From contig CAWKBX010000009.1 of the NCBI GenBank assembly GCA_963847945.1, positions 583,915 to 647,914 of the forward strand: DNA of 64,000 nucleotides. The letters are read 5' to 3'. The notes beneath the pieces were generated by a model. The model made no database searches. It saw only the letters and a program-made list of their open reading frames with translations, and was not told the DNA's origin. The stretch is from an uncultured Actinomycetes bacterium. Lineage in GTDB: Bacteria; Actinomycetota; Acidimicrobiia; Acidimicrobiales; Ilumatobacteraceae. This document shows, piece after piece, positions 7,905-55,921 of the stretch (positions are counted from its first letter, which is position 1; every line of letters begins with the position of its first letter). Position numbers and translations under genes: made by a program.

Positions 7905-7915
7905 CCGGTGTTCGA

Positions 7916-8905
7916 CTAGCGACGCGCTCGACGAGCGACCCTGACGACACCCAATGCGACGGCCACGACGCCGCCGACCATGGCGCCGAGGGCCAACTCC
8001 TGCTTGCGCTGCGGGGTCAACATCGTCCACCACCGGGCCTCGGTGCCCTCGACGTAGGCCTGCTCGTTGGTCACGGTCGGCCGCCATCCAGCCGCCTTCA
8101 AGCGGTCGTTGGCGACGAGCCACGGGTGTTGGGCGAACGGCCAGAGTCCGGGTGGAATCGGCCCGCGTTGAAACCGCCAGCGGACGTCGACCGCCGCTTC
8201 GATCAGCCACGCCGGCAGCCGGATCCGCGGGGGCGTTCCCGCCAGCGCTCGCACGGTCTCACCGGCCACCCAACCATCAGGAGCCACATTGAACACCCCG
8301 TCAAGGTGCTGGTCATGGCCCAGAACGACGGCGGAGGCCAGATCGTCGAAATGCAGGAACTGGGCCGGTGGATCCTCCTCGTCGAGCCTCGCTCCGATCC
8401 CGGCGGCCAGGGCGCGGACCACGCTGCTCGTGCCGTCGGCGGCCAACGTCAGCACGGGGCGTAGCACCGTCACGGTTCGTCCCGGAACCGCCAGGCGCCA
8501 GGCATCGACCATCTGCTCGACCTGGGCGAGTTGATGGGCGAACCCGAAGCTGACGTCGGCCCGCAGCGGAGCCTCCTCGGTCAACGGAACCGGATTGTTC
8601 GGCCAGGCGCCATAGACCATGGCCGACGACAGCAGCACCATGTGGGTAACCCGGGCGGCAGCCGGATCGGCCAGCACCTGTTCGGTGACTCGCAGGGCGT
8701 TCGCGCCACGTTCGGCCAGCGTGTCGTGGTCGCCGGCGGTCAAATGAAGCAGGCAATCCGCGTCGACGTAGCGATCGGACCGTCGCGATCGATGCAGCCG
8801 CCGATCAGACTCGATGGTGACCACGTCGAGGTCGGCTCGATCGGCCAACAACTTCAGCACCCGGGTACCCAGCGCCCCCGCGGCTCCGGTCACGAGCGTG
8901 GTCAC
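7916..8905 (-). CDS. NAD-dependent epimerase/dehydratase family protein
   Basis: Rossmann motif VTTLVTGAAGALG; the GTG start at 8905 lies 20-25 nt downstream of the intron 3' end. The longer ORF reaching 9142 runs through intron RNA. Confidence 0.75.
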   Translation of the reverse strand: MTTLVTGAAGALGTRVLKLLADRADLDVVTIESDRRLHRSRRSDRYVDADCLLHLTAGDHDTLAERGANALRVTEQVLADPAAARVTHMVLLSSAMVYGAWPNNPVPLTEEAPLRADVSFGFAHQLAQVEQMVDAWRLAVPGRTVTVLRPVLTLAADGTSSVVRALAAGIGARLDEEDPPAQFLHFDDLASAVVLGHDQHLDGVFNVAPDGWVAGETVRALAGTPPRIRLPAWLIEAAVDVRWRFQRGPIPPGLWPFAQHPWLVANDRLKAAGWRPTVTNEQAYVEGTEARWWTMLTPQRKQELALGAMVGGVVAVALGVVRVARRARR

Positions 8906-30391: not shown

Positions 30392-31472
30392 ATGACCTCT
30401 CACCCCACCGCCACCGATCAATCACCCATCCCCCCGTTCATCAAGGGCGCGACGATCTCGCTGCGCGCCCCCAACGACGGCCTGGCGAGATTCGAAGAAG
30501 ATGCTGCCCTCCTCGCCTCGGTCGGCATCAGCCGGCTGCGCGTCGGGTTCGACTGGGCGACGTTTCAGCCTCGCCCCGGGGGACTCGACGACGACTGGTG
30601 CGAGTCCCTCGGCACCCTCATCGACGCCGCCTCGGCGGTCGGCATCGGCATCGTCGCCGGACTCAACGACGGACCACTGCCCGGCTGGTTCGTCGACGAC
30701 GGTGGCTTCGGCGATGCCAAGCACGCTGGACGCTGGTGGCCCCGGTGGGTCGAAGCGGTCGCCGAAACCTTCGGTGATCGCCTCGCCGGTTGGGTCCCGA
30801 TGAACCGACCACTGCTACTGGCCAAGCCGTGGGCCGACGACCCCAAGCGCTACGTCGAGGCCTTGACGATCACCGCCGCGGCCTGGCGCGACGCGTGGCG
30901 CATTCTGCCGCGGTGGTCCGCCGGTGGCGACCGACCTCAGCCTGCGCATCGTCCGGGCGGTCGATCAGACCATCCCGGCCGCCGATGACGCCCGGCGCGA
31001 GGACCATCTACGTTGGCGCATGTGGCTGCGAGCCCTGCGCGATGGCGTCGTCGCCTTCCCCGACGGCCCCGAGCGGCGCATCGAGGAGCTCGGCAGCTCG
31101 CTCGATGTGCTGGGCTTCTCGACCACATGCGACATTCCGGTCAACGCTCCGCTCACCACCGAGGGGCTCGAACGTTGGGAACATCGGTTGGGCACGATGT
31201 TGCGACGCCTCGCGGAGGAGGGGCCGGATCGTCCACTCGCTCTGACGTTGAAGGTCGTCCACCCCGACGACGATGATCGGCGCATCATCTTCGAATGGTC
31301 GGCGCGAGCCATCGTCGAAGCTCGCCGTGACGGGATTGCCCTCGATGAGGCCTATCTCGACCCGGCGATCGACCATCGGCCCGGGAGCCGCGAGGGCGGG
31401 GTGCTCGATCGGGATCGCGACCTGAAGGCAAGTTCCTCAGTGTGGTTGGCCAACACGCCCAGCGGTGGCTAA
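30392..31472 (+). CDS. glycoside hydrolase family 1-like TIM-barrel protein; one frameshift near 30935 and a possibly altered acid/base motif (NRP for NEP)
   Basis: RVGFDWATFQPRPG resembles the GH1 RFSISWSRILP signature; WVPMNRP stands where W-x-x-NEP is expected; the gene continues in ORF 30924..31472. Confidence 0.45.
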
Positions 31473-31562: not shown

Positions 31563-32438
31563 TTGAAGTGGATCGTACTGATCCTGCTCGTTGCTGCGAT
31601 TGGGGTCGCGGTGTCGGCATGGTTGAAGAGCAGCCGCCAAACGATCGCGGTCACGTCCCCGGTTGAGCGCATCTTCGTGTACCAGAAACGACTTCGGCAG
31701 ACCGCTCCACTCGGGTTTTTCCACGGCCTGGTCGACGATCCGCTGACCGGTCGGGGGCGCACCGACCCCGGCAAGCAGCACCTCAAGATGGGGATCCACT
31801 CGTTCATCCGCCCGGTCATCGCCGTCAAGTGCTCGTCGGGTCAATACGCGATCACATTCTGGTCCGACGATGAGGTGAGTTGGAAGGCCGCCAAGGGGTC
31901 ACACACGCAGGGTCCGATCCCGGTGAAAACGGCCGACCTCATTCCGGCCAAGGTCGCCCTGCGGGCGTCGTATGCGATTATCGACAGCCCTGATCAGCTG
32001 TTGAAGATTCAGATGCCCGAGGCGTTCGCAGAGCGAGCGATCGCCGACGTCCTGGTCGCCACCCGCGAGGCGATCGGGCGGCGCGACAGCCTCGACTACG
32101 CCACGATCGGCCGCGAAGACTTGTCGGGCGAGCTGTTCGCCGACATCGACGCCCGGTTGAAGAAGCGCGGCCTGGTGTTGCGTGACCTGTGGCTCGGCAA
32201 CATCGAGTTCGATCCGGAAGTGCAGCAGGCGATCAAAAATCGCTTCAATGCCATGACCCTGGCCGACATCCCGCGGATCGCCGCTGGCGGTCAAGCTGTT
32301 GCCAACCGAGTGATCGCCGAGAGCGTGTCACCGCAGCTCATCGAGCTGATCCGCGCCGAGCGATCGGGCAACCCGTGGAACTACTGGGTGGCCCACATGG
32401 CCGAACTCGAAGGCAGCCCCAAGTCGCTCCAACGCTGA
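31563..32438 (+). CDS. SPFH/band-7 (stomatin/prohibitin-like) domain membrane protein
   Basis: N-terminal TM (MKWIVLILLVAAIGVAVSAWL) followed by an SPFH-like core. Confidence 0.65.
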   Translation: MKWIVLILLVAAIGVAVSAWLKSSRQTIAVTSPVERIFVYQKRLRQTAPLGFFHGLVDDPLTGRGRTDPGKQHLKMGIHSFIRPVIAVKCSSGQYAITFWSDDEVSWKAAKGSHTQGPIPVKTADLIPAKVALRASYAIIDSPDQLLKIQMPEAFAERAIADVLVATREAIGRRDSLDYATIGREDLSGELFADIDARLKKRGLVLRDLWLGNIEFDPEVQQAIKNRFNAMTLADIPRIAAGGQAVANRVIAESVSPQLIELIRAERSGNPWNYWVAHMAELEGSPKSLQR

Positions 32439-32545
32439 CAAATCGCTGGCAAATCGGGTCTCTTCCCCGATTTGCCAGCTGTCGTTGTCGTCGATCGTTG
32501 TCGGGAGTCCACGGGCGGAGCCCCCCGTGTCAGGGCCCCGTGTGA

Positions 32546-33986
32546 CTACGCCTTGGCGTGGTAGCCGAGGATCGCCTTGGCCTCGAGGAACTCCATGAGC
32601 CCGTGCTTGCCGAACTCGCGGCCGTTGCCCGACTGCTTGTAGCCGCCGAACAGTGGCGTTCGAGTCGGTGCCGGCACCGTTGAGGTGCACGTTGCCCGAC
32701 CGCATGCGGCGAGCCACCGCGCGGGCCCGGTCGGCGTCGGTCGACGAGACGTAGCCGGCCAGGCCGTAGACGGTGTCGTTGGCGATGCGCACGGCGTCGT
32801 CCTCATCGTCGTAGCCGATGATCGACAGCACCGGGCCGAAGATCTCTTCGCGGGCGATCGTCATGTCGTTGGTGACGTTGGCGAACACCGTCGGCTTGAC
32901 GTAGAAGCCGGCTGTCGAGCCCGTCGGGACGGCCGGGGCCACCGGCGACGAGCGTGGCGCCCTCGTCGATGCCGGTCTGGATGAGCCGCTGGATCTTGTC
33001 GAACTGCAGCCTCGGACGCGACCGGGCCGATGACGGTGCCCTCGGCGTTCGGGGTCGCCGACGGCGATCTTGTCGGCGGCGGCCCCGGCGATCGCGGCGG
33101 CCTCGTCCATCCGGTCGTGGCGGCACCAGCATGCGGGTTCCGGCGTTGCACGACTGGCCCGAGTTGACGCACATCGGCCGACGTCACGGGCGACCACCGC
33201 TGCGAAGTCGACGTCGTCGAGGATGATGTTGGCCGACTTGCCACCGAGTTCCTGCGCGACACGCTTGACGGTCGGGGCGGCGTTGCGGGCAACTTCGATC
33301 CCGGCGCGGGTCGAGCCGGTGAACGAGACCATGTCGACGTCGGGATGCGACGACAGCGCCGCACCGACGGTCGGGCCGTCGCCGTTGACCAGGTTGAACA
33401 CGCCGGCCGGCACGCCGGCCTCGTGCATCACTTCGGCGAAAACGATGGCGTTGAGCGGCGCGACTCTCCGACGGCTTGAGCACCATCGTGCAGCCGGCCG
33501 CGAGCGCCGGGGCGACCTTGGCGGCGATCTGGTTGAGCGGCCAGTTCCACGGCGTGATGAACGCGCAGACCCCGATCGGCTCGTACTCGATGCGGCTGGT
33601 GCCGACGTCTTCGGCGAACTCGAACGCCTCGAGCGCCTTGGCCGTCGCCATGAAGTGGCCGATGCCCGACGGGGCCTGGGCCCGGTTGGCCAGCGAACGT
33701 CGGCGCGCCCATCTCGCAGCTGACCGCGGCGGCGATGTCGCCCATGCGCGCCTTGTAGACCTCGATGATCCGGCCGAGCAGGGCGAGGCGATCTTCACGC
33801 GTCGTCTGCGAGAAGGTGTCGAACGCAGCCTTCGCGGCGGCGACGGCGGCGTCGACATCGGCCTGGTTACCCAGGGCGATGGTGCCGACGACCTGCTCGG
33901 TTGCCGGGTTGACGACGTCGAGCGTGGCGCCGGACGACGGGCTCGACCCACTGGCCGTTGATGTAGAACTTCTGGGCGTTGTCCAT
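32546..33986 (-). pseudogene. NAD(P)-dependent aldehyde dehydrogenase, at least 7 frameshifts
   Basis: A full-length ALDH can be read only by hopping frames (ORFs 33428..34030, 32861..33364, 32803..33174, 32546..32806 and others). Motifs are conserved across the shifts: [52 protein letters not shown]. Confidence 0.85.
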
Positions 33987-36359: not shown

Positions 36360-36957
36360 CACCACTCCGACTCGACCGACCCCCCGGACTTCAGCCCGGC
36401 AACTCGTCTCGCGCCACCACCGGACGCCACTTTGGAGCACAATCACGCTCCCAGCGTGACCGCACTCCCCGAAACCCGAAACCCGAGCCCCCGCGGCTGG
36501 GCGGGGCGGCGACTTGGCACTGGGCGATCTCGGATATGGTCCCAGGCGTGCAGCGGCGTGACCTCGAGAATGGACTGCCAGCCCCCACCGGGGGTTGGCG
36601 AGCCTGCCCCGGGGCTCCCCCGGGGTGTCAAGTGTTGCTTGAGCATTCCATCGCCGGCGCGAGACGGTGCTGGCGCACCGCACCACGCCCGCACGGCCAG
36701 TACAGTCGAGGCGCGTCGCTGCACCCATGAATCGGCGGGATCAGATCATCACCCAGGCGGTCGCCGGAGCGTTTCTCGCCGGCGAGTGGGAGCCACGGCT
36801 GATGGTTCGCCGTGCCGGCCGAGCGCTGGGCGATCGCCGGACCACCTGGTTGACGCCGCTCGCCACGTTGGTCGTCCACGCCTTTCCCATTGCCCCTCAC
36901 GACGCTCCTCGCGAGTTGGGTGCCGTCATCTGGGCGAGTGGAATCATCCAGGAACAA
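36360..36957 (+). ncRNA. candidate retron msr/msd-type non-coding RNA region upstream of the RT (boundaries not determined)
   Basis: About 600 nt without a convincing CDS, carrying several G-rich hairpins (ccccc-acc-ggggg at 36581-36593, ccccggggctcccccgggg, tcaag-tgttg-cttga at 36629-36645, ctggc..gccag at 36669-36700) and a short tandem gaaacccgaaacccga. Position and orientation match a retron ncRNA; a1/a2 repeats could not be assigned by eye. Confidence 0.25.
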
Positions 36958-38082
36958 ATGCGCGCCGACACGATGGCGCTCCGACCGCAGTGGCGAATCC
37001 ACCCCGCTACGGCACCGATTCGAATGAGAGCGACGCCCTGGCCCGTTGCCGAGATCGACTCGCTCGGTGACTTGGCCGAGCATCTCGGGCTCTCCACCGG
37101 GCGCCTCCGGTGGTTCGCTGACGTCCGATCGTGGGAGCGGGCTGTCGGTGTCGAGCCTCTGCGGCAGTACCGCTACCGGTGGCTGCCGTCGTCGAGCGGC
37201 TTTCGGCTGATCGAGGCGCCCAAGGGCACGTTGCGACACATCCAACGAGTGTTGCTCCGCACCATCCTCAACCATGTACCCATCCACGATGCCGCCCACG
37301 GGTTCCATGTCGGCCGATCGATCCACGGCTTCGTCGCCCCACACGTGGGCGCACCGGTGCTGATCAAGGCCGACCTGCGGGCGTTCTTCACCTCGATCAC
37401 GGCCGGACGCGTCTTCGGCCTGTGGCGGCGGATGGGCTACGCGGAGCCGGTCGCCCACGTCTTGACCGGGCTGACCACGAACGCAGTCCCCTCGTCGGTT
37501 CTGCGTCGATCGCCCGCCGCCGATCACCACCTCGCCGCGCTCCTTCGTGGCCCGCACCTCCCGCAGGGAGCCCCGACGTCACCCGCCTTGGCCAATCTGC
37601 TGGCATTTCACCTCGACGTGAGACTCGATGCGATGGCGCGGTCGTTCGGGGCGAACTACACGCGCTATGCCGACGACCTCGCCTTCTCGGGGGCCGCGAC
37701 GCTGGAAAAACGACAGCTCGCCCTGCTGCGGCTGGCCGAGGAGATCGTGCGCGACGAGGGTTTCCGGCTCAACCCGCTCAAGACCGCGGTCGCCGGCCCC
37801 GCACAGCGACATCGACTTGCCGGCATCGTCGTCAACGCTCGACCGAACATCGATCGACGAGAATACGACCAGCTCAAGGCCGAGTTACACGATGCCGTCA
37901 CCAACGGACCGGTCGTCGCCAACCGGCGCGACAACCCGCATTTTCGCGACCACCTGCTCGGCCGCATCGGCTGGGTTGCCGAGCTCAATCCGCCACGGGC
38001 CGAACGACTGGAGGCGATGTTCGACCGCATCACATGGGATACGACGGGAAAACGACGACGGCGTGAGTGTGTGACGCCGTGA
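36958..38082 (+). CDS. retron-type reverse transcriptase
   Basis: Collinear with Ec86-type retron RT: WPVAEIDSLGDLAEHLGLSTGRLRWF; SGFRLIEAPKGTLRHIQRVLLRTIL; VAPHVGA (NAxxH-like); DLRAFFTSI; LPQGAPTSPALANL; YTRYADDLAFS; GFRLNPLKT; HRLAGIVVN (VTG-like). No maturase or endonuclease domains. The start is taken at ATG 36958 (aGGAAcaaATG); the ORF is open back to 36667. Confidence 0.85.
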   Translation: MRADTMALRPQWRIHPATAPIRMRATPWPVAEIDSLGDLAEHLGLSTGRLRWFADVRSWERAVGVEPLRQYRYRWLPSSSGFRLIEAPKGTLRHIQRVLLRTILNHVPIHDAAHGFHVGRSIHGFVAPHVGAPVLIKADLRAFFTSITAGRVFGLWRRMGYAEPVAHVLTGLTTNAVPSSVLRRSPAADHHLAALLRGPHLPQGAPTSPALANLLAFHLDVRLDAMARSFGANYTRYADDLAFSGAATLEKRQLALLRLAEEIVRDEGFRLNPLKTAVAGPAQRHRLAGIVVNARPNIDRREYDQLKAELHDAVTNGPVVANRRDNPHFRDHLLGRIGWVAELNPPRAERLEAMFDRITWDTTGKRRRRECVTP

Positions 38083-38100
38083 GGCAATCGCACACTCACG
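38078..38100. terminator. hairpin between the convergent RT and rpsJ genes (gtgag..ctcac stem)
   Basis: cgtgag-gcaatcgcaca-ctcacg lies in the 44-nt gap between the two stop codons. Confidence 0.35.
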
Positions 38101-38126
38101 CCGACGCGTGAATCAGTGAACCGAAA

Positions 38127-38441
38127 TCAGGCGGACTGAATCTTGATTTCGATGTCGACGCCGGCCGGCAGCTCGATGCGCTGCAGGCTGTCGATGGTCT
38201 TCGGGTTCGGATCGACAATGTCGATCAGGCGCTTGTGAATGCGCATCTCGAAGTGCTCACGGCTGTCCTTGTCCTTGTGCGGCGACCGGATGACCGTATA
38301 ACGGTGCTTGTCGGTCGGCAGCGGGATGGGACCGCGCACCTTGGCGTTGGTACGGGTGACCGTCTCGACGATTTTCTTCGTCGACTGGTCGATGATTTCG
38401 TGATCAAACGCCTTGAGGCGAATACGGATGCTCTGGGCCAT
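38127..38441 (-). CDS. rpsJ: 30S ribosomal protein S10
   Basis: [14 protein letters not shown]...RGPIPLPT...[16 protein letters not shown] is canonical S10. Confidence 0.95.
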
Positions 38442-38458
38442 GTTGTTGTATCAGCCGA

Positions 38459-39643
38459 TCACTTGAGAATCTTGGTGACGCGGCCGGCGCCAACGGTACG
38501 GCCACCCTCACGAATAGCAAACCGCAACTGCTCATCCATCGCGATCGGCTTACCAAGCTCCACGATCATCGTCACGTTGTCACCAGGCATGACCATCTCG
38601 GTCCCCTCCGGCAACTGCACCATCCCCGTCACATCCGTCGTACGGAAGAAGAACTGCGGCCGGTAATTGTTGAAGAACGGCTTATGACGACCACCCTCCT
38701 CCTTGTTCAACACATACACCTGACCCTCAAAATTCGTATGCGGAGTAATACTGCCCGGCTTACACAACACCTGCCCACGCTCAACATCCTCCTTCTTCGT
38801 CCCCCGAAGAAGCGCACCGATGTTGTCGCCCGCCATACCCTCATCAAGCAACTTACGGAACATCTCCACACCCGTACACGTCGTCTTCTGCGTCTTACGC
38901 AACCCAACGATCTCAATCTCATCGCCCGTGTGGACCTTGCCCTGCTCAATCTTGCCCGTGACCACCGTGCCACGACCCGTGATCGTGAACACATCCTCAA
39001 TCGGCATCAAAAACGGCTTATCCAACTCACGCAACGGCTCCGGCACCGACGCATCACACGCCGCCATCAACTCCATGATCTTTTCCTGCCACGCCTCATC
39101 ACCCTCCAACGCCTTCAACGCGCTGACCCGCACCACAGGGCAATCATCACCCGGAAACTCATACTCCGACAGCAACTCGCGAACCTCAAGCTCCACCAGC
39201 TCCAGCAGTTCCTCATCATCGACCATGTCAGCCTTGTTCAACGCCACCACGATGTACGGCACCCCAACCTGACGAGCCAACAACACATGCTCACGCGTCT
39301 GGGGCATCGGACCATCAGTCGCCGCCACCACCAAGATCGCCCCATCAACCTGAGCCGCACCCGTGATCATGTTCTTGATGTAGTCCGCGTGACCCGGCAT
39401 GTCCACATGGGCATAATGGCGATTCACCGTCTCGTACTCGATATGCGCGATCGAGATCGTGATACCACGAGCCTTCTCCTCCGGCGCCTTATCGATCTGA
39501 TCAAACGGCGTGTAATTCGCCAGACCCTTACCCGCCAACGTCTTAGAAATCGCCGCCGTCAACGTCGTCTTACCATGGTCAATATGACCCATAGTGCCGA
39601 TATTCACGTGCGGCTTATTCCGCTCGAACTTTGCCTTGGACAT
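38459..39643 (-). CDS. tuf: elongation factor Tu
   Basis: [26 protein letters not shown], full-length canonical EF-Tu. Confidence 0.97.
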
Positions 39644-40528: not shown

Positions 40529-42520
40529 TCAAACGAGCAGGGGGTTGGTGACGACGTCGACGAGCGCCGGACCGGGGTGAGCCAGGGCGGTCGCGATGGC
40601 CGAGTCGAGGTCGGTTGGGTCGGTGACGCGGATGCCGCGGGCACCGCAGAGCTCGGCGAAAGCGGCGAAGTCGGGGTTGTGGAGCGAGGTCTGCCACACG
40701 TCCCAGTGGGCGGCCCGTTGCTCTTTGGAGATCTTGCCCAACTCGCTGTTGTCGAGCACCACGTGGGTGATGTTCATGCCGTACTTCACCGCGGTGGTCA
40801 TCTCCATGGCGTATTGACCGAGCCCGCCGTCGCCACTGATCGACACAATCTGGCGGGTGTCACCGACTGCCGCCCAGGCCCCCATCGCCGCCGGGAGAGC
40901 GAAGCCGATCGAGCCGAGGTAGCCCGACATCACCAGATCCTGGCGGCCTGAGGCCTCGAAGTAGCGACCAAATGAGTAGGTGTTGTTGCCCACGTCGACG
41001 GCGATGACGGCGTTGGGGTCGATCAGCCGGGTGAGGCTCGCCATCACCGCGGCGGCCCCGATGCCATGCGCTGCATCGTCGGCGGCGCGCTTCGACTTCT
41101 CGGCTCGCCACAGGGACCACCGTTGGGCGACCTCGGCCCGCTGATCGACCTCGGCCCGCGGGTCGCTGTCGACTCGGACTTCGAGCGCGGCGATCATCGC
41201 CCGAGCGGTGACAGCCACATCGCCAAGCAGACCGACCTCGACGCCGTGGAACCGGCCGATCGACATCGGGTCGTCGTCGATCTGGATCGTCGGTTTGTAC
41301 GACGCAATCCCGGTGTGATTCGAGAAGCTGGCACCGAACACCACCAACAGATCGCTCTCGTTCATGAACCAACTGGCCACGGGCGTACCCGACCGCCCGA
41401 GCACACCACACCCGAGCGGATGGCTGTCGCTGACGAGCCCCTTGGCCTTGAACGTCGTCCCAACCGGTGCACCGAGCCGTTCGGCGAGATCCATGATCGC
41501 GGTCATCTGCCCGCGGCAGCCCGCTCCCACAACGATCATCGGGCGTCGCGCCGTGCGCATCATCTCGAGCGCGCGGTCGAGTTCGGCGGCCGGTGGCGCA
41601 GTGGCTCGTGAGGCGAGACGACCCGCCGGCGTGCCGGCCGCCGCATCGGCCGCTACCGGGTGGTGCTGCACCTCGTCGGGCAGAATCAAGTGAGCCACGC
41701 CGCGCCCGACAATCGCGTGCTTCATCGCCAGACCGGCGAGTTCGGCATGGTCGGAGCCGAGCGCGACGGTCTCGCTGTAGAGCGTCACATCGGCGAACGC
41801 CGCTTCGAGGTCGGTGTCCTGGAATGCTCCACGGCCCCGTACCTTCGACGGCACCTGACCCGAGATGGCGAGCACCGGTGAGCGGTCCTCGCGGGCGTCA
41901 TACAAGCCGGTAAGCAGGTTGGTCGAGCCCGGCCCCGCGATCCCGAAGCACACCGCCGGGCGACCGGTGAGCTTCCCGTAGGCCGACGCAGCGAACGATG
42001 CTGCGCCCTCATGGCGGATGCCGACGAAGGTGAGTTCGCCGCGTTCGGCGGCCTTGCGCATCGCGTCGGCGAACCCGAGGTTGGAATGGCCGACCATGCC
42101 AAACGCGTGGGTGAGTCCCCAGTTGACCAGCGTCTCGACGAGTACATCGGCGACCGTTCGCGGCTGCACCGGTTCAGGCGGGAGGGCAACGTAGACACCG
42201 TCGGCGCGGGTTTCCACGGCGAAGCAGGCCGGCGCGTCGGAGAACCCCGTAGGAGGCTTGCCGGTCACGGGTGAGTAGTCGTAGCCGTGCCACGGGCACC
42301 GCAGCCAGCCGTTCTCGATCGATCCTTCGCCGAGCGGTCCACCCTGGTGCGGACAGGCATTGTCGAGGCAGCCGTACTGGCCGTCGTGATGCGTCATCGC
42401 CAGCGAGCGCCGCCCGACCGAGACGGTGGTGACCCGACCCTCGGGCAGCTCGTCGGGGCCGAGCACTCGGTGCCAGGAGGTACCGCCGGAGTCGCCTGCG
42501 GTGGTGACGTTGTCGTTCAC
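40529..42520 (-). CDS. Rieske [2Fe-2S] domain fused to a thiamine-diphosphate enzyme (acetolactate synthase/pyruvate oxidase family)
   Basis: N-terminal Rieske CPHQGGPL-x16-CPWHGYDY; then TPP enzyme N-terminal (GIAGPGSTNLLTGLYDA...GQV), central and TPP-binding (ISGDGGLGQY...NN) domains. Confidence 0.85.
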   Translation of the reverse strand: MNDNVTTAGDSGGTSWHRVLGPDELPEGRVTTVSVGRRSLAMTHHDGQYGCLDNACPHQGGPLGEGSIENGWLRCPWHGYDYSPVTGKPPTGFSDAPACFAVETRADGVYVALPPEPVQPRTVADVLVETLVNWGLTHAFGMVGHSNLGFADAMRKAAERGELTFVGIRHEGAASFAASAYGKLTGRPAVCFGIAGPGSTNLLTGLYDAREDRSPVLAISGQVPSKVRGRGAFQDTDLEAAFADVTLYSETVALGSDHAELAGLAMKHAIVGRGVAHLILPDEVQHHPVAADAAAGTPAGRLASRATAPPAAELDRALEMMRTARRPMIVVGAGCRGQMTAIMDLAERLGAPVGTTFKAKGLVSDSHPLGCGVLGRSGTPVASWFMNESDLLVVFGASFSNHTGIASYKPTIQIDDDPMSIGRFHGVEVGLLGDVAVTARAMIAALEVRVDSDPRAEVDQRAEVAQRWSLWRAEKSKRAADDAAHGIGAAAVMASLTRLIDPNAVIAVDVGNNTYSFGRYFEASGRQDLVMSGYLGSIGFALPAAMGAWAAVGDTRQIVSISGDGGLGQYAMEMTTAVKYGMNITHVVLDNSELGKISKEQRAAHWDVWQTSLHNPDFAAFAELCGARGIRVTDPTDLDSAIATALAHPGPALVDVVTNPLLV

Positions 42521-44156
42521 GGATGCAGTCCTCCATAGGGAACACCGGCCAGATGGTGCATCTCACGGTCGAACGTCGTGAGATCGTCGATGCACAGCTC
42601 CGACAGATGGTGATGGCCGCAGGCTCGGGCGAGCACGGTCATCAGCTCGACCGTCGCCTCAAGGAAACGGGTGAGCCGACGAGCCGACTCGTCGACCACC
42701 AGCCGCTGGCGAAGACCGGGTTTCTGCGTGGCGATGCCGACCGGGCAGTTGTCGCTGTTGCACGCCCGCATGCCAATGCAACCGATCGCCTGCAACGCGG
42801 CATTGGAGATCGCCACCGCGTCGGCACCGAGCGCGAGCGCCTTCACGAAATCGGTATGGGTACGCAGACCGCCGGTGATCACGAGCGTCACCGCGGATCC
42901 CGATCGGTCGAGATGCCGACGGGCCCTCGCCAACGCCGGAATGGTCGGCACCGAAATGTGGTCGCGGAACAACACCGGCGCAGCTCCCGTCCCCCACCCC
43001 GACCATCGAGGATCACGTAGTCGACCCCGATCTCAAGCGCGGCATCGAGATCGGCCTCGATGTGCTGCGCCGACAGCTTCGCTCCGATCGGAATACCGCC
43101 GGCTGTCTCGCGCACCATCGCCGCGACCTCGCGGTAGTCGCCGGTCGTGCGCAGATCGGGGAAGGTGGCCGGCGAGACCGCCGGTTGGCCCTCGGGCAGA
43201 CCGCGCACCTCGGCGATGCGCCCGACCACTTTGTTGCCCGGGAGATGCCCGCCGGTGCCGGTCTTGGCGCCCTGGCCGAACTTGAAATGGAAGGCCTGAA
43301 CGTCGCGCACCTTGTCGAGCGACCAACCAAATCGGGCCGAGGCGAGCTCATAGAAGTAACGGCTGTTCTCGGCGTGCTCCTCGGGCAACATCCCACCCTC
43401 ACCCGAACAGATGCCGGTGCCCGCGCCCTCGGCACCGCGGGCCAGCGCGACCTTCGCTTCGAGCGACAGTGAACCGAAGCTCATATCGCTGACGAACAAC
43501 GGGATCTTCAGGTGCAGCGGTTTGGCCGCCGTACCGCCGATGGTGATGTCGGTGGCGACCGTCTCGTCATCGAGGAGCGGTCGCTTCGCCAGCTGGGCGG
43601 TGACGATCTGGATCGAGTCCCACAGCGGGAGCCGATCACGGGGCACGCCCATCGCCGCCACCGGGCCATGGTGCCCGACCTTCGACAACCCGTCGATCGA
43701 GAGCTGACGGATCTGGCCGACGAAGGGTTCCTCGGGCGCGCCGTGGGGATCTTGGAACGCCCCTTGGTAGGCATCGCGGTCGTACGGCTGGGGATGCTCA
43801 CGCTCCCAGGCGGCGATCTCGTCGGCGTCGACCATGAGCTGATCGCTGACCTCGTCGACCCACGACGTGAAGAGGTGGAGCTGCTGGTCGTTGTCGTACG
43901 CGCTGATCCCGGTGCGCAACGAGTAGTCCCAACCGTGCAGCCCGCAGACCAGGTCGTCGCCGCGGACCGTGCCGTCTGCCATCAGTGCGCCGCGGTGCAG
44001 GCATCGGCCGTAGAGGACTGAATGCTCGTCACCGAAACGGACGATCACCAGATCGACATTGGCCACGATCGCACCCGTCGGCGTGCGATCACTCAACTCG
44101 CTCCACCGGGCGACGGACACTGGTGTCATTGAGGTCGTTGGCGTCGTTGTTGTCAT
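42517..44156 (-). CDS. Rieske [2Fe-2S] domain fused to a glutamate synthase domain-2-like FMN/Fe-S oxidoreductase; one frameshift near 42990
   Basis: Rieske CLHRGALMADGTV-x-CGLHGWDY followed by GltS-type motifs (GSLSLEAKVALARGA, SGEGG, FKFGQGAKTGTGGHLPG). The C-terminal part (GGLRTHTDFVKALALGADAV..CPVGIATQ) continues in ORF 42517..42975. 4-nt overlap with the downstream Rieske-TPP gene. Confidence 0.8.
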
Positions 44157-44174
44157 GGCGGGAATCGCTCCTGG

Positions 44175-44888
44175 TCAGACAAGCCGACGATAGCCGACGA
44201 GCAGGAATGCGGTGCCCGCACCGATGACATCGGCCGACTCTCCGGCGAGTTCGCTGCGGGCGCGGAACGCGCCGAACGGGGCGTTCCAGAACCCGGCGTC
44301 GCCGGGGCGGTCGGCGGTCCACGGCCCGACATAGAGATACGGCTCATTGCAGAATCCGTCGCCGGGCGAGCCGCCGAGATTCACCCGTCGATCGGCATGA
44401 GCTTGGGCCTCGATCGCCACATCGAAGTGTTCGGGCCACAGTCGGGGCAGCGTGGGTCGGGCGGCGGCGGGCAGGTCGACCAGCACCCGGTCGAGGATCG
44501 CCGCAATCGTTGCGAACCATCCGGTGACGTCGGCTGCGCCGACGCCGTCGAGAACGATCGGAGCATCAGCGTCGCCGACCGGCGGCGTGTCGCGACCGAC
44601 ATCGAGCGGTTCGGCAAGGTCGACGCCGGCGAACGCGGCGAGCTGCGCGAGCGAGGACCCATTGATCTCGATCGACCCGATGGAAGCCTCGCCGGGTGCG
44701 TCGGACTCGACGATCAGATGGGCTCCCGACACCCTCACCCGCCGTCCTACCGGAGGGAGATCGGGCGTGCCGAAACCCCCGGGAGCGACGCGCAATGAGA
44801 ACCGGGTGGAAGCCGCTACCCGGGCCCGAGCAACCACATGCACGGCGACGCTGTGCAACGATTCGCGGGCGGCTGAGAAGGTGTCCAT
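44175..44888 (-). CDS. hypothetical protein (first gene of the Rieske-fusion operon)
   Basis: 237-aa ORF, co-oriented and 19 nt upstream of the Rieske-GltS gene; no family recognised. Confidence 0.4.
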   Translation of the reverse strand: MDTFSAARESLHSVAVHVVARARVAASTRFSLRVAPGGFGTPDLPPVGRRVRVSGAHLIVESDAPGEASIGSIEINGSSLAQLAAFAGVDLAEPLDVGRDTPPVGDADAPIVLDGVGAADVTGWFATIAAILDRVLVDLPAAARPTLPRLWPEHFDVAIEAQAHADRRVNLGGSPGDGFCNEPYLYVGPWTADRPGDAGFWNAPFGAFRARSELAGESADVIGAGTAFLLVGYRRLV

Positions 44889-47271: not shown

Positions 47272-48597
47272 TCAGCTCGAATGGGCCCGTTCGTAGGTCA
47301 GAATCTCGGCTGCCCAGTTGCCGACCTTCTCACCCGCGATCCGCTGGCGGTTTGGCCACGGGGCGGTCAGGTCAACGGCACGTCCACGGGAGATGACGGC
47401 ACGCAGGCGAGCACGGTCCTGCAAGATCCGCACGTCGGCGGCAGGATCACCGTCGACCACGAGCACATCGGCGAGATAGCCCGGGGCTACCACACCGAGC
47501 CGACCATCGAGACGCATGGCAAACGCGTTATTCCTGGTCGCGCAGGTGATCGCCTCGAGCGGGGTGAGGCCGAGTTCGGCGACGAACACCTCCATCTCGC
47601 GGGCGTGCCAGTGACCGTAGGGGGTGAGGGCGAAGCCACTCTCCGAACCGCACAACAGTCGGACTCCGGCGTCATACGCCCGGCGCATCATCGCCGCGGT
47701 CGCCCGAATCTCGCCCCGGAAGATGTCGGTCATCCCCGCGCCAGCGCCGACCCGGTCGCCGAAGTCGGCCAAGTTGGCCAGGAACGTGAATGTCGGGCAG
47801 ATCGCAGCGCCAGCTGCGACTACCGCGTCGAGCCCCTCGTCGTCCATGAACGAGGCGTGGAGGATGAGATCGACCCCGGCGCGGGCCGCGTCGCGCACCG
47901 ACGATGCGTTGCGGCAGTGGGCGGTGACCGGGGTGCCGAGTTCGTGGGCGGTGTCGACCACGGCGCGCATCTCGTCGAGCTTCCAGACCTGCAACTCGCC
48001 GCGGTGTCGGGGGATCGAGCCGGTGGCGTGGATCTTGATCCAATCGGCGCCCTGCTTGATGTGGCGGCGGGTCATCGTGACCATCTCGTCGACGGTGTTG
48101 ACGACCGCCGCGTAGCCGACGCGACCCTCGTCGGGAATCAGCCTCCCGGCGGTACCGCCGACCGAGGTGAGCAGGGCCTGCACCCCGGTCGCCATCCGCG
48201 GGCCCGGGAACGCTCCAGCGTCGAGGGCGTCGCGCACCTGCGGTCCGATACCGTCGATCGTGTCGGGATCGAAGAATGACGTGACCCCGGCGAGCAGCAG
48301 CTTGGGCAGGTTGAAGGCGGTGAGCAACGCCGCCGTCGGGGCCGGCCGATGGAAGAACAGCTCGTCGTTCGACTGCACATCGTCGAACGTCGAGTGGCAG
48401 TGGGCGTCGATCAAGCCCGGCATCACGGTCATCCCCGTGGCGTCGATCAACAACACGTCGGCCGGGGCCGCGACAGCAGCCGTCGGGCCGACGGCGACGA
48501 TTTCGTCACCGATCAACAGCACATCGGTTGACTGTCGCGGCGCGACCCCGGTGCCGTCGATCAACGAGCCGCCCGAGATGAGGATCGACGATGCCAT
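47272..48597 (-). CDS. amidohydrolase family metal-dependent hydrolase
   Basis: GLIDAHCH metal-binding motif and a TIM-barrel amidohydrolase core; start at MASSILISGG. Confidence 0.8.
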   Translation of the reverse strand: MASSILISGGSLIDGTGVAPRQSTDVLLIGDEIVAVGPTAAVAAPADVLLIDATGMTVMPGLIDAHCHSTFDDVQSNDELFFHRPAPTAALLTAFNLPKLLLAGVTSFFDPDTIDGIGPQVRDALDAGAFPGPRMATGVQALLTSVGGTAGRLIPDEGRVGYAAVVNTVDEMVTMTRRHIKQGADWIKIHATGSIPRHRGELQVWKLDEMRAVVDTAHELGTPVTAHCRNASSVRDAARAGVDLILHASFMDDEGLDAVVAAGAAICPTFTFLANLADFGDRVGAGAGMTDIFRGEIRATAAMMRRAYDAGVRLLCGSESGFALTPYGHWHAREMEVFVAELGLTPLEAITCATRNNAFAMRLDGRLGVVAPGYLADVLVVDGDPAADVRILQDRARLRAVISRGRAVDLTAPWPNRQRIAGEKVGNWAAEILTYERAHSS

Positions 48598-49576
48598 GGT
48601 GATGAAGTTACGCCGAGCCGCAGGAGTCGACGGGCGTTGTCGTCGTACTCGGCGCGGTAGGGGATCTCGGCCGGGTCGTGGGGGGCGTCCCAGCCGGCGA
48701 GGTTCGTGCCAACGACCAGCCGGTCGACCCCGACCTTGCCCTCCACCAGGTCGAACGCGTCGACGTCGTGGACGTGCTGATCGAACCACAGGCGCCGGAG
48801 GCCGGCACCGAAGTCGACCGGGTTCGACCGGGCCCACGGCCGCGACCGGCCCTGGTGCTCCAGGCGACCGACCATGAACGCGGCCGCCCCGCCGCCGTGG
48901 GAGAAGCACACGTCGAGGCCTGGATGACGGTCGAGCACCCCGCCGTAGATCGATGCAGGCGACAGCCAGGGTCTCCTCGTACAGAAACCCCAGCGACAGA
49001 TCGAGGTCGAACTTGCGGATGCGCTCGTCGCGCAACGGGCCGTCGATTCCGGCCGGCGCAGGGTGGATGAAGATCGGCACGTTTCAGTTCGACGGCCGCG
49101 GCCCACAGCGGGTCGAGCCGTTCGCTGTCGAAGGTCATCCCGAAGTCGGTGCCGATGTACGCACCGAGCAGACCGAGGTCGTCGACTGCTCGTCGTAGCT
49201 CGATACACGCCGCATCGACGTCTTGCATCGGGAGCTGGGCGAAACCCCGTAGACGATCGGGATAGGCATCGACAACCAGCGCCAGTTCGTTGTTGTGCCA
49301 CCGGCAGAACTCGGCCGCGGTGGCCGGCTCGATGTGGTGGAAATAGGTGATCGGGTTGGGCGAGAGCACCTGAAGCTCGATGCCGAGATGGTCGTTCAGC
49401 GCCAGACGACGGTCGACATCCATGAACGGGGAGTCGCGGTACTTGACCCCTTCGAGCACGTAGTCGCCGGCTCGGAACCGGGCGATGCCGTCGGCACCCT
49501 CGGTCAGAGTCGGGCCGTAGACCCCGGCGCAGCCGAGTACCCCTTCGAGCACCACATGGGCATGGACGTCGATCAT
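48561..49576 (-). CDS. amidohydrolase-2 (ACMSD-like) family protein, frameshifted near 49300
   Basis: MIDVHAHVV start motif; the C-terminal half continues in ORF 48561..49301. Confidence 0.6.
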
Positions 49577-50783
49577 GCCGTGGGTCGCGGCAGCGCCGAA
49601 CACGATCGGGTAGCGACCGAAGTATGGGCGGGTCGTCGACTCGTCGAGTTCCGGCGGGTCGCTCGGGTCGGGACGTGCGCCGTGGTCGAAGATCGCCTGC
49701 ACGGCCTGAGGGACCAGGCCGAAGAGGTGGGCGTCCATCGAACCGCTCTCATCTCCGTCAAAGGCGACACCCGAGGCGAGGTCTTGGCCGATACAGGCGT
49801 GCATCCCCGACCCGTACGACAGCCCCCAGGGTGCCACGCCGTGGGGCATCAGTCGATGCGGGTTGAACTCGGTCTGCATCGTCGCCGAACACTCGTGGTA
49901 TCGCGGTTGACCGACAACAGGTCGATGACCAGCTTGTCGCCCTTCGGGAATCGCGCGACCCGACTGCAGCTGCACATCGCTCAACGCCCAGCGCATCGCC
50001 GTCGGGCTCGACGGTTGCAGGCGGATCGTCTCGTGGGTGCAGCGCTGCACGAACAGCCGATCGGCGGCGCACCCGCTCGGCGTCTTCGGGGTGGACTTCG
50101 AGCCACTTGAAGATGTTGTGCGATCACCCGGGTGAAGGCGGTCGCCGAAGTGTGCGCCCCGGCCAGTAGGTAGAAGCGCGATCTCGCGGACGATCACCTC
50201 GGCCGAGAGGTCGAGGTTGTCGTTGTTGGCCAACAGCACGCTGAGCACGTCGTGCGGGGCATCGCCGCGGCCAAGGCTCGGCGGCGGGCGATCGACGGCT
50301 GGACGAACTCGTCGTCGAAGGCGGCGAGCTTCTCGGCGACCTCGGCCCGCTTGGCGTCGCGGTCGCCGGTGTAGTGGGCCAGCGTGGCCCCTCGATGAAC
50401 CGCATCAGGTAGTCGTAGAGCCGGAACGTCTCGGCGGGCGTACCGAGGGGACGATCGACTCCGGCGGTTTGGGCGGCCAGGTTCATCATCATCTGGTGGC
50501 CGAGTTTGACCAGTTCAGCCCGGCCATTGGCGACGTGCGGTGCGATCGTCTCGGCGATCACCGGCGGGAAGAGGTCGCGTTCGTAGACGTTGACGACCGA
50601 GCGGCTGAACAGGCGGTTCTCGAGCCGCCGCCGGGCCCGGTGATCGTCACCGTGGAGGTTGACAAGCACATCGGCCATGATCACCTCGCCGGCGTCATAC
50701 AGCGCCTGGCGCAGGTCTTTCTGGCGGTACGCGTCGCGGGCCTCGTCGTAGCCCGTGATGGTGTGGATGGTCGGCTGGCTCAT
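49577..50783 (-). pseudogene. cytochrome P450 (paralog of 53963..55153), at least 4 frameshifts; no stop before the downstream amidohydrolase-2 start
   Basis: N-terminus (50124..50783) and C-terminus with ExxR (HETIRLQP) and the heme loop FGSGMHACIGQ (within 48608..50248) lie in different frames. The middle region aligns to the intact paralog only piecewise. Confidence 0.7.
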
Positions 50784-53962: not shown

Positions 53963-55153
53963 TCAACCGAGGGCGACCCAGTAGGAGCTGAAGTTCGGCC
54001 GGGTGGTGTGGATGTCCCGCTCGGGCAGACGGTCAGGGTGGGGGCGGGCGCCGTGGGCGAACAGGCGGGCGGCCATCGCCACGATGGCGCCGAAGACATG
54101 CACGTCGTCATCGACGGTCTCGCTGGTCGGCATGCCTCCGGCGAGGGCTTGCCCGAGGCAGGCGTGGGTGCCGCTCCCGAAGCTGAGGCCCCATGGGGCC
54201 ACCCGCGGCGGCAACCGACGGCCGGGGATGAAGTCGGCGGCATCCGCTCCGAACACCGCCGGATCACGGTTGGCGTCCGACATCGCCAGGGTCAGCTCAT
54301 CGCCGACCTCCAGCGTCCGGCCCGACGACAATGTGAGCCGCGAGACGGCTCGACGGCGGGCTTCGGGGCTCGCCGGGTGCAGGCGCAGCGATTCGTGGAC
54401 ACACGCCGCCAGCCACTGCGGGTCGGTCGTCAGCCCGATATCAGATGGATGGCGAGCGAGCCAACCGAAGATCTCGTCCATCGCGAAGACGAACTCGATG
54501 GAGGTGGAATGGGCCCCCACCCAGGGATAGTACGCCGCTTCACGCAACACATCGTCATACGGCAGGTCGAGACGGTCCTGGTTGCGGAGCAACACCGTCA
54601 GCACGTCGCGGGGCGTTTCGGCTTCCGTCACCGCACCCGTTTCGAGGGCGGCCAGCGCGGCCAGTCGGCGGTCGCGCGATGGACCAAAGAACCGGCTCTC
54701 GAACTCGGCGAGCGCCGCGTTCCCATCGGCAACCACGGCGTCGGCCGGCAACATCGAGTGGACGACGATCGATGCCACCGCCATCCGGTTCATCAGCGCG
54801 GCGAACTCGGCGAGGGTCGCCGGTGAGTCATCGGGCAGGTCGATGCCGGCGACGCGCCGTGAGACCGTCATCATCGCCGAGCGGGCCATAGGCAGCAGGT
54901 CGACCTCGCCGGCGACCAGCGACGGCTGCAACACCGCGTCGATCGTCGGGGCAACCAATGATCGCTCCCAAGCGGCAAACACGTCGCGCCGGAAGAGCCG
55001 GTTCTCCAACCGCCGTCGATCGCGATGCTCGTCGCCATGGAGGTTGACGATCACCGGGCCCATCAGCGCCGCTCCGGCGTCGTACAGCGCCTGGCGCAGC
55101 TCTCGCGCTCGCAGCGCCTCGGCGACTTCGGCATACGACTCCAGCAGAATCAC
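53963..55153 (-). CDS. cytochrome P450 (intact copy)
   Basis: ExxR (HESLRLHP) and heme loop FGSGTHACLGQ; GTG start overlapping the stop of the ThuA-like gene; 397 aa. Confidence 0.85.
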   Translation of the reverse strand: MILLESYAEVAEALRARELRQALYDAGAALMGPVIVNLHGDEHRDRRRLENRLFRRDVFAAWERSLVAPTIDAVLQPSLVAGEVDLLPMARSAMMTVSRRVAGIDLPDDSPATLAEFAALMNRMAVASIVVHSMLPADAVVADGNAALAEFESRFFGPSRDRRLAALAALETGAVTEAETPRDVLTVLLRNQDRLDLPYDDVLREAAYYPWVGAHSTSIEFVFAMDEIFGWLARHPSDIGLTTDPQWLAACVHESLRLHPASPEARRRAVSRLTLSSGRTLEVGDELTLAMSDANRDPAVFGADAADFIPGRRLPPRVAPWGLSFGSGTHACLGQALAGGMPTSETVDDDVHVFGAIVAMAARLFAHGARPHPDRLPERDIHTTRPNFSSYWVALG

Positions 55154-55824
55154 AATGCGATCAACCAGTCGACGATTCGCCCGAGCAGCGCCCGGTGACC
55201 GGGATGTTCCAACGACCGTTGGTCGTGACCGAGTGAGCTGTACGCCACTCGGGCCGCAGTGGAATGATTCCGCCAAGCGACCGGGTGCGCGACGGAGGCA
55301 TCGTCGGTCGCTGTCGCCAGGACCGCGGCCCCAAGAGACGGGGTGACATAGCGGTACAACTCGTCGACCACGTCGATTGGGGAGAGTCCGTCGACCACTG
55401 AGTCGTCGGTGAAGATCACCGTGAACTGGCCGGGGGGCGGGTGGTTCGATCGCTCCCAACTCCAGGCCGCGCCCAACACCGAGACCCACTCGGGCCAGTC
55501 GTCGAAACACAACGCTGCGGTGTGCATTCCCAACAATGGACGTCCGTCCGCGAGATGGCGCTGCACCGCGACCCGAAAGGCCAAGGGCGTCGTCAATGCG
55601 AACTTCGCCCGCTGGTCGGGCGTGTACCGGGCATCGAGCATTTGGAACATGCAGGCGTGAACGACGAGTAGATCGAACGACCGGCCGGCCAACGCAGTCG
55701 TCGCGTCGTCCAACGAGGTGACCGTATCCACCGTGAACCCGAGCGAGGCCAATGCGGCTGCTGTGGGAGGGCCGGTTTGTTCGGCTGGATGGGCCCATCC
55801 TCCAACCAGCAGCAACGCTCGCAT
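55150..55824 (-). CDS. ThuA-like / class I glutamine amidotransferase-like domain protein
   Basis: Start taken at MRALLLVGGWAHP; a ThuA-type fold is suspected. Confidence 0.45.
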   Translation of the reverse strand: MRALLLVGGWAHPAEQTGPPTAAALASLGFTVDTVTSLDDATTALAGRSFDLLVVHACMFQMLDARYTPDQRAKFALTTPLAFRVAVQRHLADGRPLLGMHTAALCFDDWPEWVSVLGAAWSWERSNHPPPGQFTVIFTDDSVVDGLSPIDVVDELYRYVTPSLGAAVLATATDDASVAHPVAWRNHSTAARVAYSSLGHDQRSLEHPGHRALLGRIVDWLIAL

Positions 55825-55921
55825 CTGCGGAATCGTAGACAGCAACTCGCCGTCCAGCCGTCGAGGAGCGGCGCGGGTCGCGATACTCTCCGCCCGGGGA
55901 AGACACGTGAAGGGGTACGCA

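Follow-up and report, generated by a model that had tools for sequence, protein, structure and literature searches.

Three adjacent minus-strand genes in a 64,000-nt stretch of contig CAWKBX010000009.1 (assembly GCA_963847945.1; hereafter the window, whose positions serve as coordinates throughout) probably encode a real but unstudied redox module that handles 2-oxo acids and amino acids. Two of the genes specify enzymes with the cores of the pyruvate oxidase PoxB and of the glutamate synthase (GltS) alpha-subunit. Both cores are known from textbook flavoenzymes, and their electron partners are deemed settled (quinone or O2 for the first, ferredoxin or an NADPH-binding beta-subunit for the second); here, each carries a fused Rieske [2Fe-2S] domain. 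We refer to the two proteins as Rieske-TPP (for its dependence on thiamine diphosphate, TPP) and Rieske-GltS, and to the 237-aa orphan protein encoded beside them as hyp237. Our preferred reading, to which we give a probability of about 0.4, is that the enzymes would act one after the other on a route from amino acid to 2-oxo acid to acid, each unloading its electrons through its Rieske domain to a shared acceptor. New here are the linkage of the two enzymes, the orphan protein as their third partner, the exchange of redox modules among sister families, and the occurrence of such genes on megaplasmids of haloarchaea and on a plasmid of a mycobacterium. The swapped modules imply an unstudied family of plug-in electron ports on PoxB- and GltS-type enzymes.

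The genes run from 44888 to 40529 in the order hyp237, Rieske-GltS, Rieske-TPP. The window has a G+C content of about 66%, and the nearest relatives of its proteins come from metagenome-assembled genomes labelled Acidimicrobiales, Acidimicrobiaceae or Ilumatobacteraceae. The features of the locus are as follows.

44175–44888, minus strand: hyp237, a 237-aa orphan open reading frame (ORF), recurrent third partner of both enzymes
42517–44156, minus strand: gene for the Rieske and GltS-type flavin mononucleotide (FMN)/[3Fe-4S] oxidoreductase, 546 aa after repair
43908–44120, minus strand: Rieske [2Fe-2S] domain of the GltS-type enzyme (PF00355, 42.4 bits; ligand codons 43935–44003)
42520–43544, minus strand: Glu_synthase (PF01645) FMN domain, including the [3Fe-4S] motif C-x5-C-x4-C at 42745–42780
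42991–42995, no strand assigned: C5 homopolymer (minus-strand G5) with a 1-nt deletion, which breaks the GltS-type frame inside the GGGTGA FMN-binding motif
42517–42520, minus strand: 4-nt GTGA stop/start overlap of the GltS-type and TPP genes (translational coupling)
40529–42520, minus strand: gene for the putative Rieske and PoxB/POX-type flavin adenine dinucleotide (FAD)/TPP 2-oxo-acid dehydrogenase, 663 aa, intact
42257–42478, minus strand: Rieske [2Fe-2S] domain of the TPP enzyme (PF00355, 59.7 bits; ligand codons 42287–42355)
40553–42157, minus strand: Pfam domains TPP_enzyme_N (41810–42157), TPP_enzyme_M (41198–41581) and TPP_enzyme_C (40553–40996)

Two flavoenzyme cores, each with a fused Rieske domain

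Pfam confirms every domain that an earlier sequence-only reading of this DNA had named (Rieske, TPP N/M/C and Glu_synthase). The bona fide Rieske motif, C-x-H-x16-C-x2-H, which that reading had seen in both proteins, is exact in each, and its ligands are invariant among homologues. In Rieske-TPP, the Rieske match stands at 59.7 bits against a cut-off of 20.3, and the TPP_enzyme_N, M and C domains score 120, 113 and 121 bits. The motif spans residues 56–78 (CPH..CPWH), and its ligands C56, H58, C75 and H78 are present in 120/120 homologues. A protein 100% identical to that of the window (P0001) is encoded on a 1.69-Mb contig.

The closest solved structures found for Rieske-TPP by phmmer are Escherichia coli PoxB, Corynebacterium glutamicum PQO and Lactobacillus plantarum pyruvate oxidase (LpPOX), with a best E value of 4e-73. 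Foldseek comparison with these structures gives TM-scores, normalized to the target, of up to 0.90. By sequence and by Foldseek, the Rieske part is covered by no solved chain. With PoxB (3EY9/3EYA), PQO (9EV3-6) and LpPOX (1POX), the window enzyme has in common the three-domain TPP core, the catalytic, cofactor-activating glutamate (Glu171, PoxB E50), the cofactor motif G563-D-G ... N591, the FQ pair (PoxB F112/Q113), and Glu600, which corresponds to PoxB E469. Its middle domain aligns well with the FAD domain of PoxB. Its catalytic residues, like the cluster ligands, do not vary among the 120 homologues. Unlike PoxB, it has an N-terminal Rieske domain and no C-terminal lipid-binding (amphipathic membrane-binding) peptide, as its chain ends at about PoxB residue 530 of 572. 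A further difference is Lys596, invariant in 120/120 homologues, which replaces PoxB Phe465 (LpPOX Phe479). In PoxB and LpPOX, this phenylalanine lies between the thiazolium and the flavin. A lysine in its place would be compatible with a substrate whose distal group is anionic. In an AlphaFold2 model of Rieske-TPP, the whole-chain predicted TM-score is 0.83 and linker residues 106–120 have a per-residue confidence (pLDDT) of 81–94; for these reasons the Rieske domain looks docked in the model, not loosely tethered.

In the GltS-type protein, the Rieske domain scores 42.4 bits (cut-off 20.3), and PF01645 scores 152 bits in one piece of the gene and 103 bits in the other. Its Rieske motif spans residues 52–74 (CLH..CGLH). 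Among 120 homologues, C71 and H74 are kept in all, and C52 and H54 in 119, the exception being an N-terminally truncated record; three haloarchaeal homologues keep the ligands too. The [3Fe-4S] ligands, C-x5-C-x4-C, are invariant among the homologues, as are E903, Q969, K972 and R992 in the numbering of Synechocystis ferredoxin-dependent GltS, each in 120/120. Gln978 in the same numbering is replaced by histidine in 120/120 Rieske-GltS homologues, in the three haloarchaeal proteins and in a Vibrio relative that carries CDGSH domains.

The glutamate synthase alpha-subunit (Synechocystis 1LLW/1OFD, Azospirillum brasilense 1EA0, Bacillus subtilis 7MFM) shares with the window enzyme the PF01645 domain, the [3Fe-4S] ligands and the GGTGA motif. 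The two differ in that the Rieske domain of the window enzyme occupies the place at which electrons would arrive from ferredoxin or the beta-subunit. In addition, the PPHHDIYSIEDL stretch is changed and the position of Gln978 is held by the invariant histidine. Pfam found only Rieske and PF01645 in Rieske-GltS; it has no amidotransferase, central or GXGXG domain, and there is no beta-subunit. Lacking the amidotransferase domain, the GXGXG domain and the beta-subunit, Rieske-GltS is not a glutamate synthase in the sense of that family.

Both fusion architectures are already in public databases, under generic names. Should those names be right, the locus would encode an ordinary pyruvate oxidase or acetolactate synthase together with a glutamate synthase or the subunit C of N-methylglutamate synthase (MgsC). 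Homologues carry JGI names to this effect, and the best NCBIfam matches are indeed the pyruvate oxidase/PoxB and GltB models. Against this, the equivalog scores fall far under their cut-offs: Rieske-TPP reaches 391 vs 742 for pyruvate oxidase, 335 vs 792 for PoxB and 299 vs 638 for SpxB, missing the cut-offs for pyruvate oxidase, PoxB and acetolactate synthase about two-fold, and Rieske-GltS reaches 120 vs 1047 for GltB. No GATase_2 or GXGXG gene (mgsA/mgsB, gltB) and no ilvN or ilvC was found among the neighbours examined, and the Rieske fusions, Lys596 and the lost PoxB tail set the enzymes apart. MgsC resembles the window enzyme in being a stand-alone GltS-type FMN domain and differs in that no Rieske domain is known in it and mgsA/mgsB (GATase_2, GXGXG) are not near the window gene; the MgsC label on homologues is a JGI name derived from similarity only. 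On the NCBIfam cut-offs and the absent partner genes, we reject the pyruvate oxidase, acetohydroxyacid synthase, GltB and MgsC annotations, and consider it highly improbable that the database names are correct. The sequence-only reading had raised the prospect that the two genes are commonly found separately in well-known pathways. Separation of the two proved frequent, though in no case within a well-known pathway.

Pfam families Rieske, Rieske_2 and Rieske_4 all match the Rieske domains of the window. As in Rieske-type ferredoxins and NirD-like proteins of COG2146 (e.g. BphF, the ferredoxin of biphenyl dioxygenase), they have the CxH...CxxH ligands without the disulfide cysteines of bc1/b6f complexes, and the absence of bc1-type cysteines suggests that they are of low-potential type. 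The difference from BphF-type ferredoxins is one of architecture: BphF is a free shuttle between reductase and oxygenase, whereas the window domains are fused to the N-terminus of a flavoenzyme.

A probable assembly error in the Rieske-GltS gene

The sequence-only reading had treated the Rieske-GltS gene as one open frame, overlooking a frameshift. In the window, the gene is split into a 422-aa ORF (42888–44156) and a 152-aa ORF (42517–42975). The cause is one base missing from a minus-strand run of five G (plus-strand C5, 42991–42995), which lies exactly within the FMN-binding GGGTGA motif. With one G inserted, the frame encodes 546 aa and contains the canonical GGGTGAAP motif; GGTGA is in frame only after this repair. 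The repaired protein is 91% identical to its best intact relative (P0121, 537 aa). Its true start may be Met10 (44129), which would give 537 aa, the same length as the closest relatives.

We consider the frameshift very probably an assembly indel because 14/14 aligned homologous loci are intact there, with one more base than the window at this run, and because the window contains further broken genes. These lie at 30392–30988, 32328–33431, 48560–49700 and 53963–55906; the reading of an amidohydrolase_2 gene takes three frames, and aldehyde dehydrogenase, GH1 and P450 genes appear as fragments. Such splitting and truncation of unrelated genes suggests an indel-prone (long-read) assembly. Alternatively, the frameshift could be real, Rieske-GltS a pseudogene, and the module decaying in this genome. 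The frame is, after all, broken in the sequence as given, and nothing in the protein collection matches the repaired protein at 100%, while each of its two neighbours has such a match. This alternative is nevertheless quite improbable. The lesion is the only one in the gene and consists of one base lost from a homopolymer, the repaired protein matches intact relatives at 91% identity with the conserved residues all kept in both pieces, and the same 64 kb contain several unrelated genes that are likewise split or truncated, as an indel-prone assembly would give.

N-terminal redox modules that look exchangeable

The nearest relatives of both enzymes outside the Rieske forms carry a different redox domain in the same place. 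For Rieske-TPP, these are rubredoxin-TPP fusions of 39–49% identity, and one 873-aa relative has two CDGSH motifs ahead of a Rieske domain and the TPP core (for this group as a whole, P0246, P0249, P0256, P0262 and P0242; L097-L099). For the GltS core, they are tandem CDGSH-GltS proteins with a core 63–65% identical to that of the window protein. The N-terminal domain thus looks like an exchangeable port for the entry or exit of single electrons, and the strongest argument for this view is that sister families carry rubredoxin or CDGSH at the same position. The two Rieske domains of the window are 30% identical to each other, and we reject a recent duplication on this ground.

CDGSH-GltS has been catalogued as "type 5 CISD", with no function given (Lin et al. 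2011, PMC3174974; PMC5859297). The window enzyme is like type 5 CISD in having an N-terminal [2Fe-2S] module, the subfamily-specific histidine and the 63–65% identical FMN/[3Fe-4S] core; it differs in that the module is a Rieske domain and not tandem CDGSH (zf-CDGSH x2 in the Vibrio fortis homologue), and the Vibrio CDGSH-GltS locus has no TPP enzyme or hyp237 nearby. A full-text literature search found no paper that describes either Rieske fusion, in keeping with the sequence-only reading of an uncharacterised module; only the CDGSH-GltS architecture is catalogued. Neither the rubredoxin-TPP form nor the form with two CDGSH domains, Rieske and TPP appears to have been described. A metagenome scan for rubredoxin-TPP contexts returned three loci only, with no GltS-type neighbour. 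One comes from a human gut metagenome (L097), and another (L098) lies among housekeeping genes on a contig of about 45–50% G+C.

Linkage of the three genes across Acidimicrobiia

For a survey of loci, we took one genome per species and the best 80 of 556 stretches encoding a relative of Rieske-TPP. Identity to the window protein over these 80 loci is 65–89%, and all belong to Acidimicrobiia except a few bins labelled otherwise. Given this identity and the 556 stretches with a relative, Rieske-TPP is likely to be important in Acidimicrobiia, an abundant class in soil, freshwater, marine and sponge-associated settings. The full Rieske-TPP architecture forms only three or four 50%-identity clusters among 1.84 billion representative proteins searched.

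Across Acidimicrobiia, the two enzyme genes and hyp237 adjoin in pairs that vary from locus to locus. Sixty-eight of the 80 loci have enough upstream sequence to be testable. In 20 of them, the gene immediately before Rieske-TPP is Rieske-GltS; in about 15 others, a hyp237 homologue comes right after the TPP gene. When the TPP proteins are placed in a neighbour-joining tree, clades with adjacent GltS and clades with hyp237 downstream interleave across one half of it. The 4-nt overlap that the sequence-only reading had pointed out (GTGA at 42517–42520) recurs at the junction from GltS to TPP in at least 10 loci, among them L002, L009, L038, L049, L066, L071, L072, L086 and L087. Among seven distinct Rieske-GltS contexts, two have the TPP gene downstream, two have hyp237 up- or downstream without TPP, and in two Rieske-GltS stands alone. 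The pairing of the enzymes is therefore real but not an obligatory operon. Of the two-enzyme operon proposed from the sequence, the functional link and a recurrent order, GltS before TPP, are supported; the arrangement is not fixed, as about 70% of the testable loci have no adjoining Rieske-GltS.

The sequence-only reading had described hyp237 as a leading gene for a protein of unknown family. The protein indeed has no Pfam, NCBIfam or Protein Data Bank sequence match and no clear structural relative, but it is more than a leader: its homologues adjoin either enzyme in other loci, and both orders, hyp before GltS and GltS before hyp, are found without a TPP gene. The family has about 4300 members, and this linkage gives it a first functional context. 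We infer that hyp237 is a third component of the module, accessory or enzymatic. In L083-L085 and L089 (about 7047–8004 and 4047–5004), a long form of the hyp237 family precedes Rieske-GltS and has been annotated as two genes of 91 aa and 247 aa, which reflects either a further frameshift or a genuine split of an N-terminal extension.

In one acidimicrobial clade of Rieske-TPP loci (L043, L050, L062 and L064, also L041), a glyoxylate-shunt cluster of a RamB-like regulator, malate synthase and isocitrate lyase immediately precedes Rieske-TPP, and a type-II GAPDH-like gene, rimO and cinA follow it. These identities were read from the sequences alone, and the arrangement of glyoxylate-shunt genes may be synteny only.

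Carriage on plasmids and in haloarchaea

Among the 72,556 plasmids of PLSDB, full-length Rieske-GltS (60–61% identity) occurs on three only, all haloarchaeal megaplasmids (Salinirubellus sp. SYNS196, Halorarius halobius ZY10 and Halorubrum salinarum RHB-C, in the last case pHAR01). Full-length Rieske-TPP (56–60% identity) occurs on five only: the same three, one of Haloferax larsenii and one of Mycobacteroides abscessus. On the three shared plasmids, the two genes lie 1.4, 4 and 16.7 kb apart. The linkage counts together with these three plasmids show that the pairing is real and has crossed between domains of life. Carriage by cultured haloarchaea and, for Rieske-TPP, by an M. abscessus plasmid makes the system experimentally tractable.

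The mycobacterial copy (L095, M. abscessus subsp. bolletii 50594 plasmid 1, 8001–9950; 60% identical) sits on a mobilizable plasmid of a clinical mycobacterium, after a DUF4331 gene and near TetR and flavodoxin-family genes; its annotated start appears to truncate the Rieske domain. A Na+/H+ antiporter gene adjoins Rieske-TPP in Acidimicrobiia, Halorarius and M. abscessus. We regard this as coincidence, the antiporters being about 27% identical or unmatched. Nor do we count as support a Streptomyces sp. NBC_00539 plasmid (L094, 7430–10830) in which an FMN-binding GltS-family protein is immediately followed by a TPP enzyme without Rieske domain, the gene order of the window. That GltS-family protein belongs to another subfamily, with a membrane-anchored N-terminus, no Rieske domain, valine at the position of the subfamily histidine, and 33–35% identity.

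The haloarchaeal islands (L090, L092, L093, L096 and L100) contain merA, ArsR, an arsenic-resistance gene, DsrE, TusA, rhodanese and YeeE, as well as TauE/SafE, TlpA, thioredoxin, a GST-N protein, quinol monooxygenase, DUF3179, NAD(P)HX epimerase and an M20 hydrolase. In Halorarius and Halorubrum, the gene immediately before Rieske-TPP encodes a PAS histidine (sensor) kinase, and genes for M20 and AstE/aspartoacylase-type deacylases adjoin the enzyme genes in haloarchaea. Acidimicrobial neighbours, at different loci, include TusA/DsrE/OsmC, Fur-KatG, a Dyp peroxidase with a nitroreductase, and a protein that we read from its sequence as a putative 1-Cys peroxiredoxin.

These neighbourhoods raise the possibility that the module consists of two independent dehydrogenases with Rieske ports, which would share regulation or a redox partner within a stress or bypass island and have no metabolite in common; an example would be 2-oxo-acid oxidation independent of lipoate and [4Fe-4S] clusters under thiol, metal or oxidative stress. 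The islands with their metal, sulfur and thiol genes and the kinase upstream in two genera speak for such an arrangement, as do the acidimicrobial neighbours just named. So do the rubredoxin-TPP relatives in contigs of anaerobes; rubredoxin commonly feeds the detoxification of oxygen and reactive oxygen species. Neighbourhoods vary by lineage, however, and none of the stress-type genes is consistently adjacent; translational coupling and the presence of hyp237 beside either enzyme argue for a closer functional tie. We think it unlikely that the two enzymes work independently.

A proposed route for electrons and its alternatives

In the sequential route that we prefer, the GltS-type enzyme would oxidize a glutamate-like amino acid at its FMN to a 2-oxo acid and ammonia, and the electrons would leave from FMN through the [3Fe-4S] cluster to the Rieske domain. 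The TPP enzyme would then decarboxylate the resulting 2-oxo acid oxidatively, in the simplest case 2-oxoglutarate to succinate and CO2, with an electron exit from FAD to its own Rieske domain; pyruvate is an alternative substrate. Both Rieske ports would discharge to one shared acceptor. We favour this route for several reasons. The TPP enzyme would run only in the oxidative direction, so that its Rieske domain would be an electron exit. Both families occur on their own, so that neither would need the other as electron partner, which argues against obligatory docking. The kept residues of the GltS 2-oxoglutarate site (K972, R992, E903 and Q969) and the active-site lysine Lys596 fit a dicarboxylic substrate, as judged from alignment, and deacylase genes flank the enzymes in haloarchaea.

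Several observations weigh against the sequential route. About one in two Rieske-TPP loci lacks both partners within 10 kb, and the other half of the TPP tree, outside the interleaved clades, is almost devoid of both. The neighbours in haloarchaea and some in Acidimicrobiia point to thiol, metal or oxidative stress and not to amino-acid catabolism. With Gln978 changed to histidine across the whole subfamily, the chemistry of Rieske-GltS may differ from that of glutamate synthase. The lysine-for-phenylalanine exchange and the conserved GltS residues do not identify the substrate, and FAD binding, the cluster potentials and the substrates of both enzymes are predictions. Finally, the tight translational coupling fits a physical complex equally well.

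In a physical complex, the TPP enzyme would oxidize pyruvate or another 2-oxo acid and pass the electrons, from Rieske to Rieske or from Rieske to [3Fe-4S], to the GltS-type enzyme, which would aminate 2-oxoglutarate with free ammonia. The outcome would be a glutamate synthase independent of NAD(P)H and ferredoxin and driven by 2-oxo-acid oxidation. The sequence-only reading had suggested an electron-transfer-coupled module of this general kind; direct coupling is now one of several readings, and not the one that we prefer. The 4-nt overlap and the fixed order of GltS before TPP in many clades are typical of stoichiometric complexes, the residues of the iminoglutarate site are conserved, and both enzymes occur together on haloarchaeal plasmids. 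In genuine GltS, moreover, the [3Fe-4S]/FMN domain receives its electrons from ferredoxin or the beta-subunit. We find direct coupling doubtful all the same. Mutual docking would need one port, yet both enzymes carry one; the two Rieske domains are only 30% identical; both families exist with other ports and without a partner gene nearby; and the genes are apart in most loci. Low-potential Rieske centres typically lie around -150 mV, a potential that would give little driving force for reductive amination.

A fuller version of the coupled arrangement would unite all three proteins in one soluble complex, in which a 2-oxo-acid dehydrogenase independent of lipoate, ferredoxin and NAD(P)H would be wired via two Rieske clusters to a minimal glutamate-synthase core, with hyp237 as third subunit. 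Decarboxylation of a 2-oxo acid would pay for the amination, e.g. 2 x 2-oxoglutarate + NH3 -> glutamate + succinate + CO2. We judge this complex improbable. If it were true, nitrogen assimilation would have a route not known before, one that could pass between Acidimicrobiia, plasmids of mycobacteria and haloarchaea.

Other features of the window

In the window, the enzyme genes have as neighbours, besides hyp237, genes for a RIO kinase, an SDR protein and a SnoaL protein. We rejected the RIO kinase, SnoaL and SDR proteins as members of the module, for their adjacency to it is not conserved elsewhere. A scan for promoters and terminators gave matches no more often in the real sequence than in shuffled sequence, and Rfam returned zero matches between 35000 and 46000.

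A retron-type reverse transcriptase gene on the plus strand (36667–38082) scores 529 bits with the PADLOC RT_other model and 499 bits with the retron RT_outgroup model. It adjoins a lone rpsJ (38127–38441) and tuf (38459–39643); no fusA precedes this pair, and no rplC follows it. The segment (36667–39643) has no Rfam match nearby, and its G+C content is 0.58 against about 0.66 around it.

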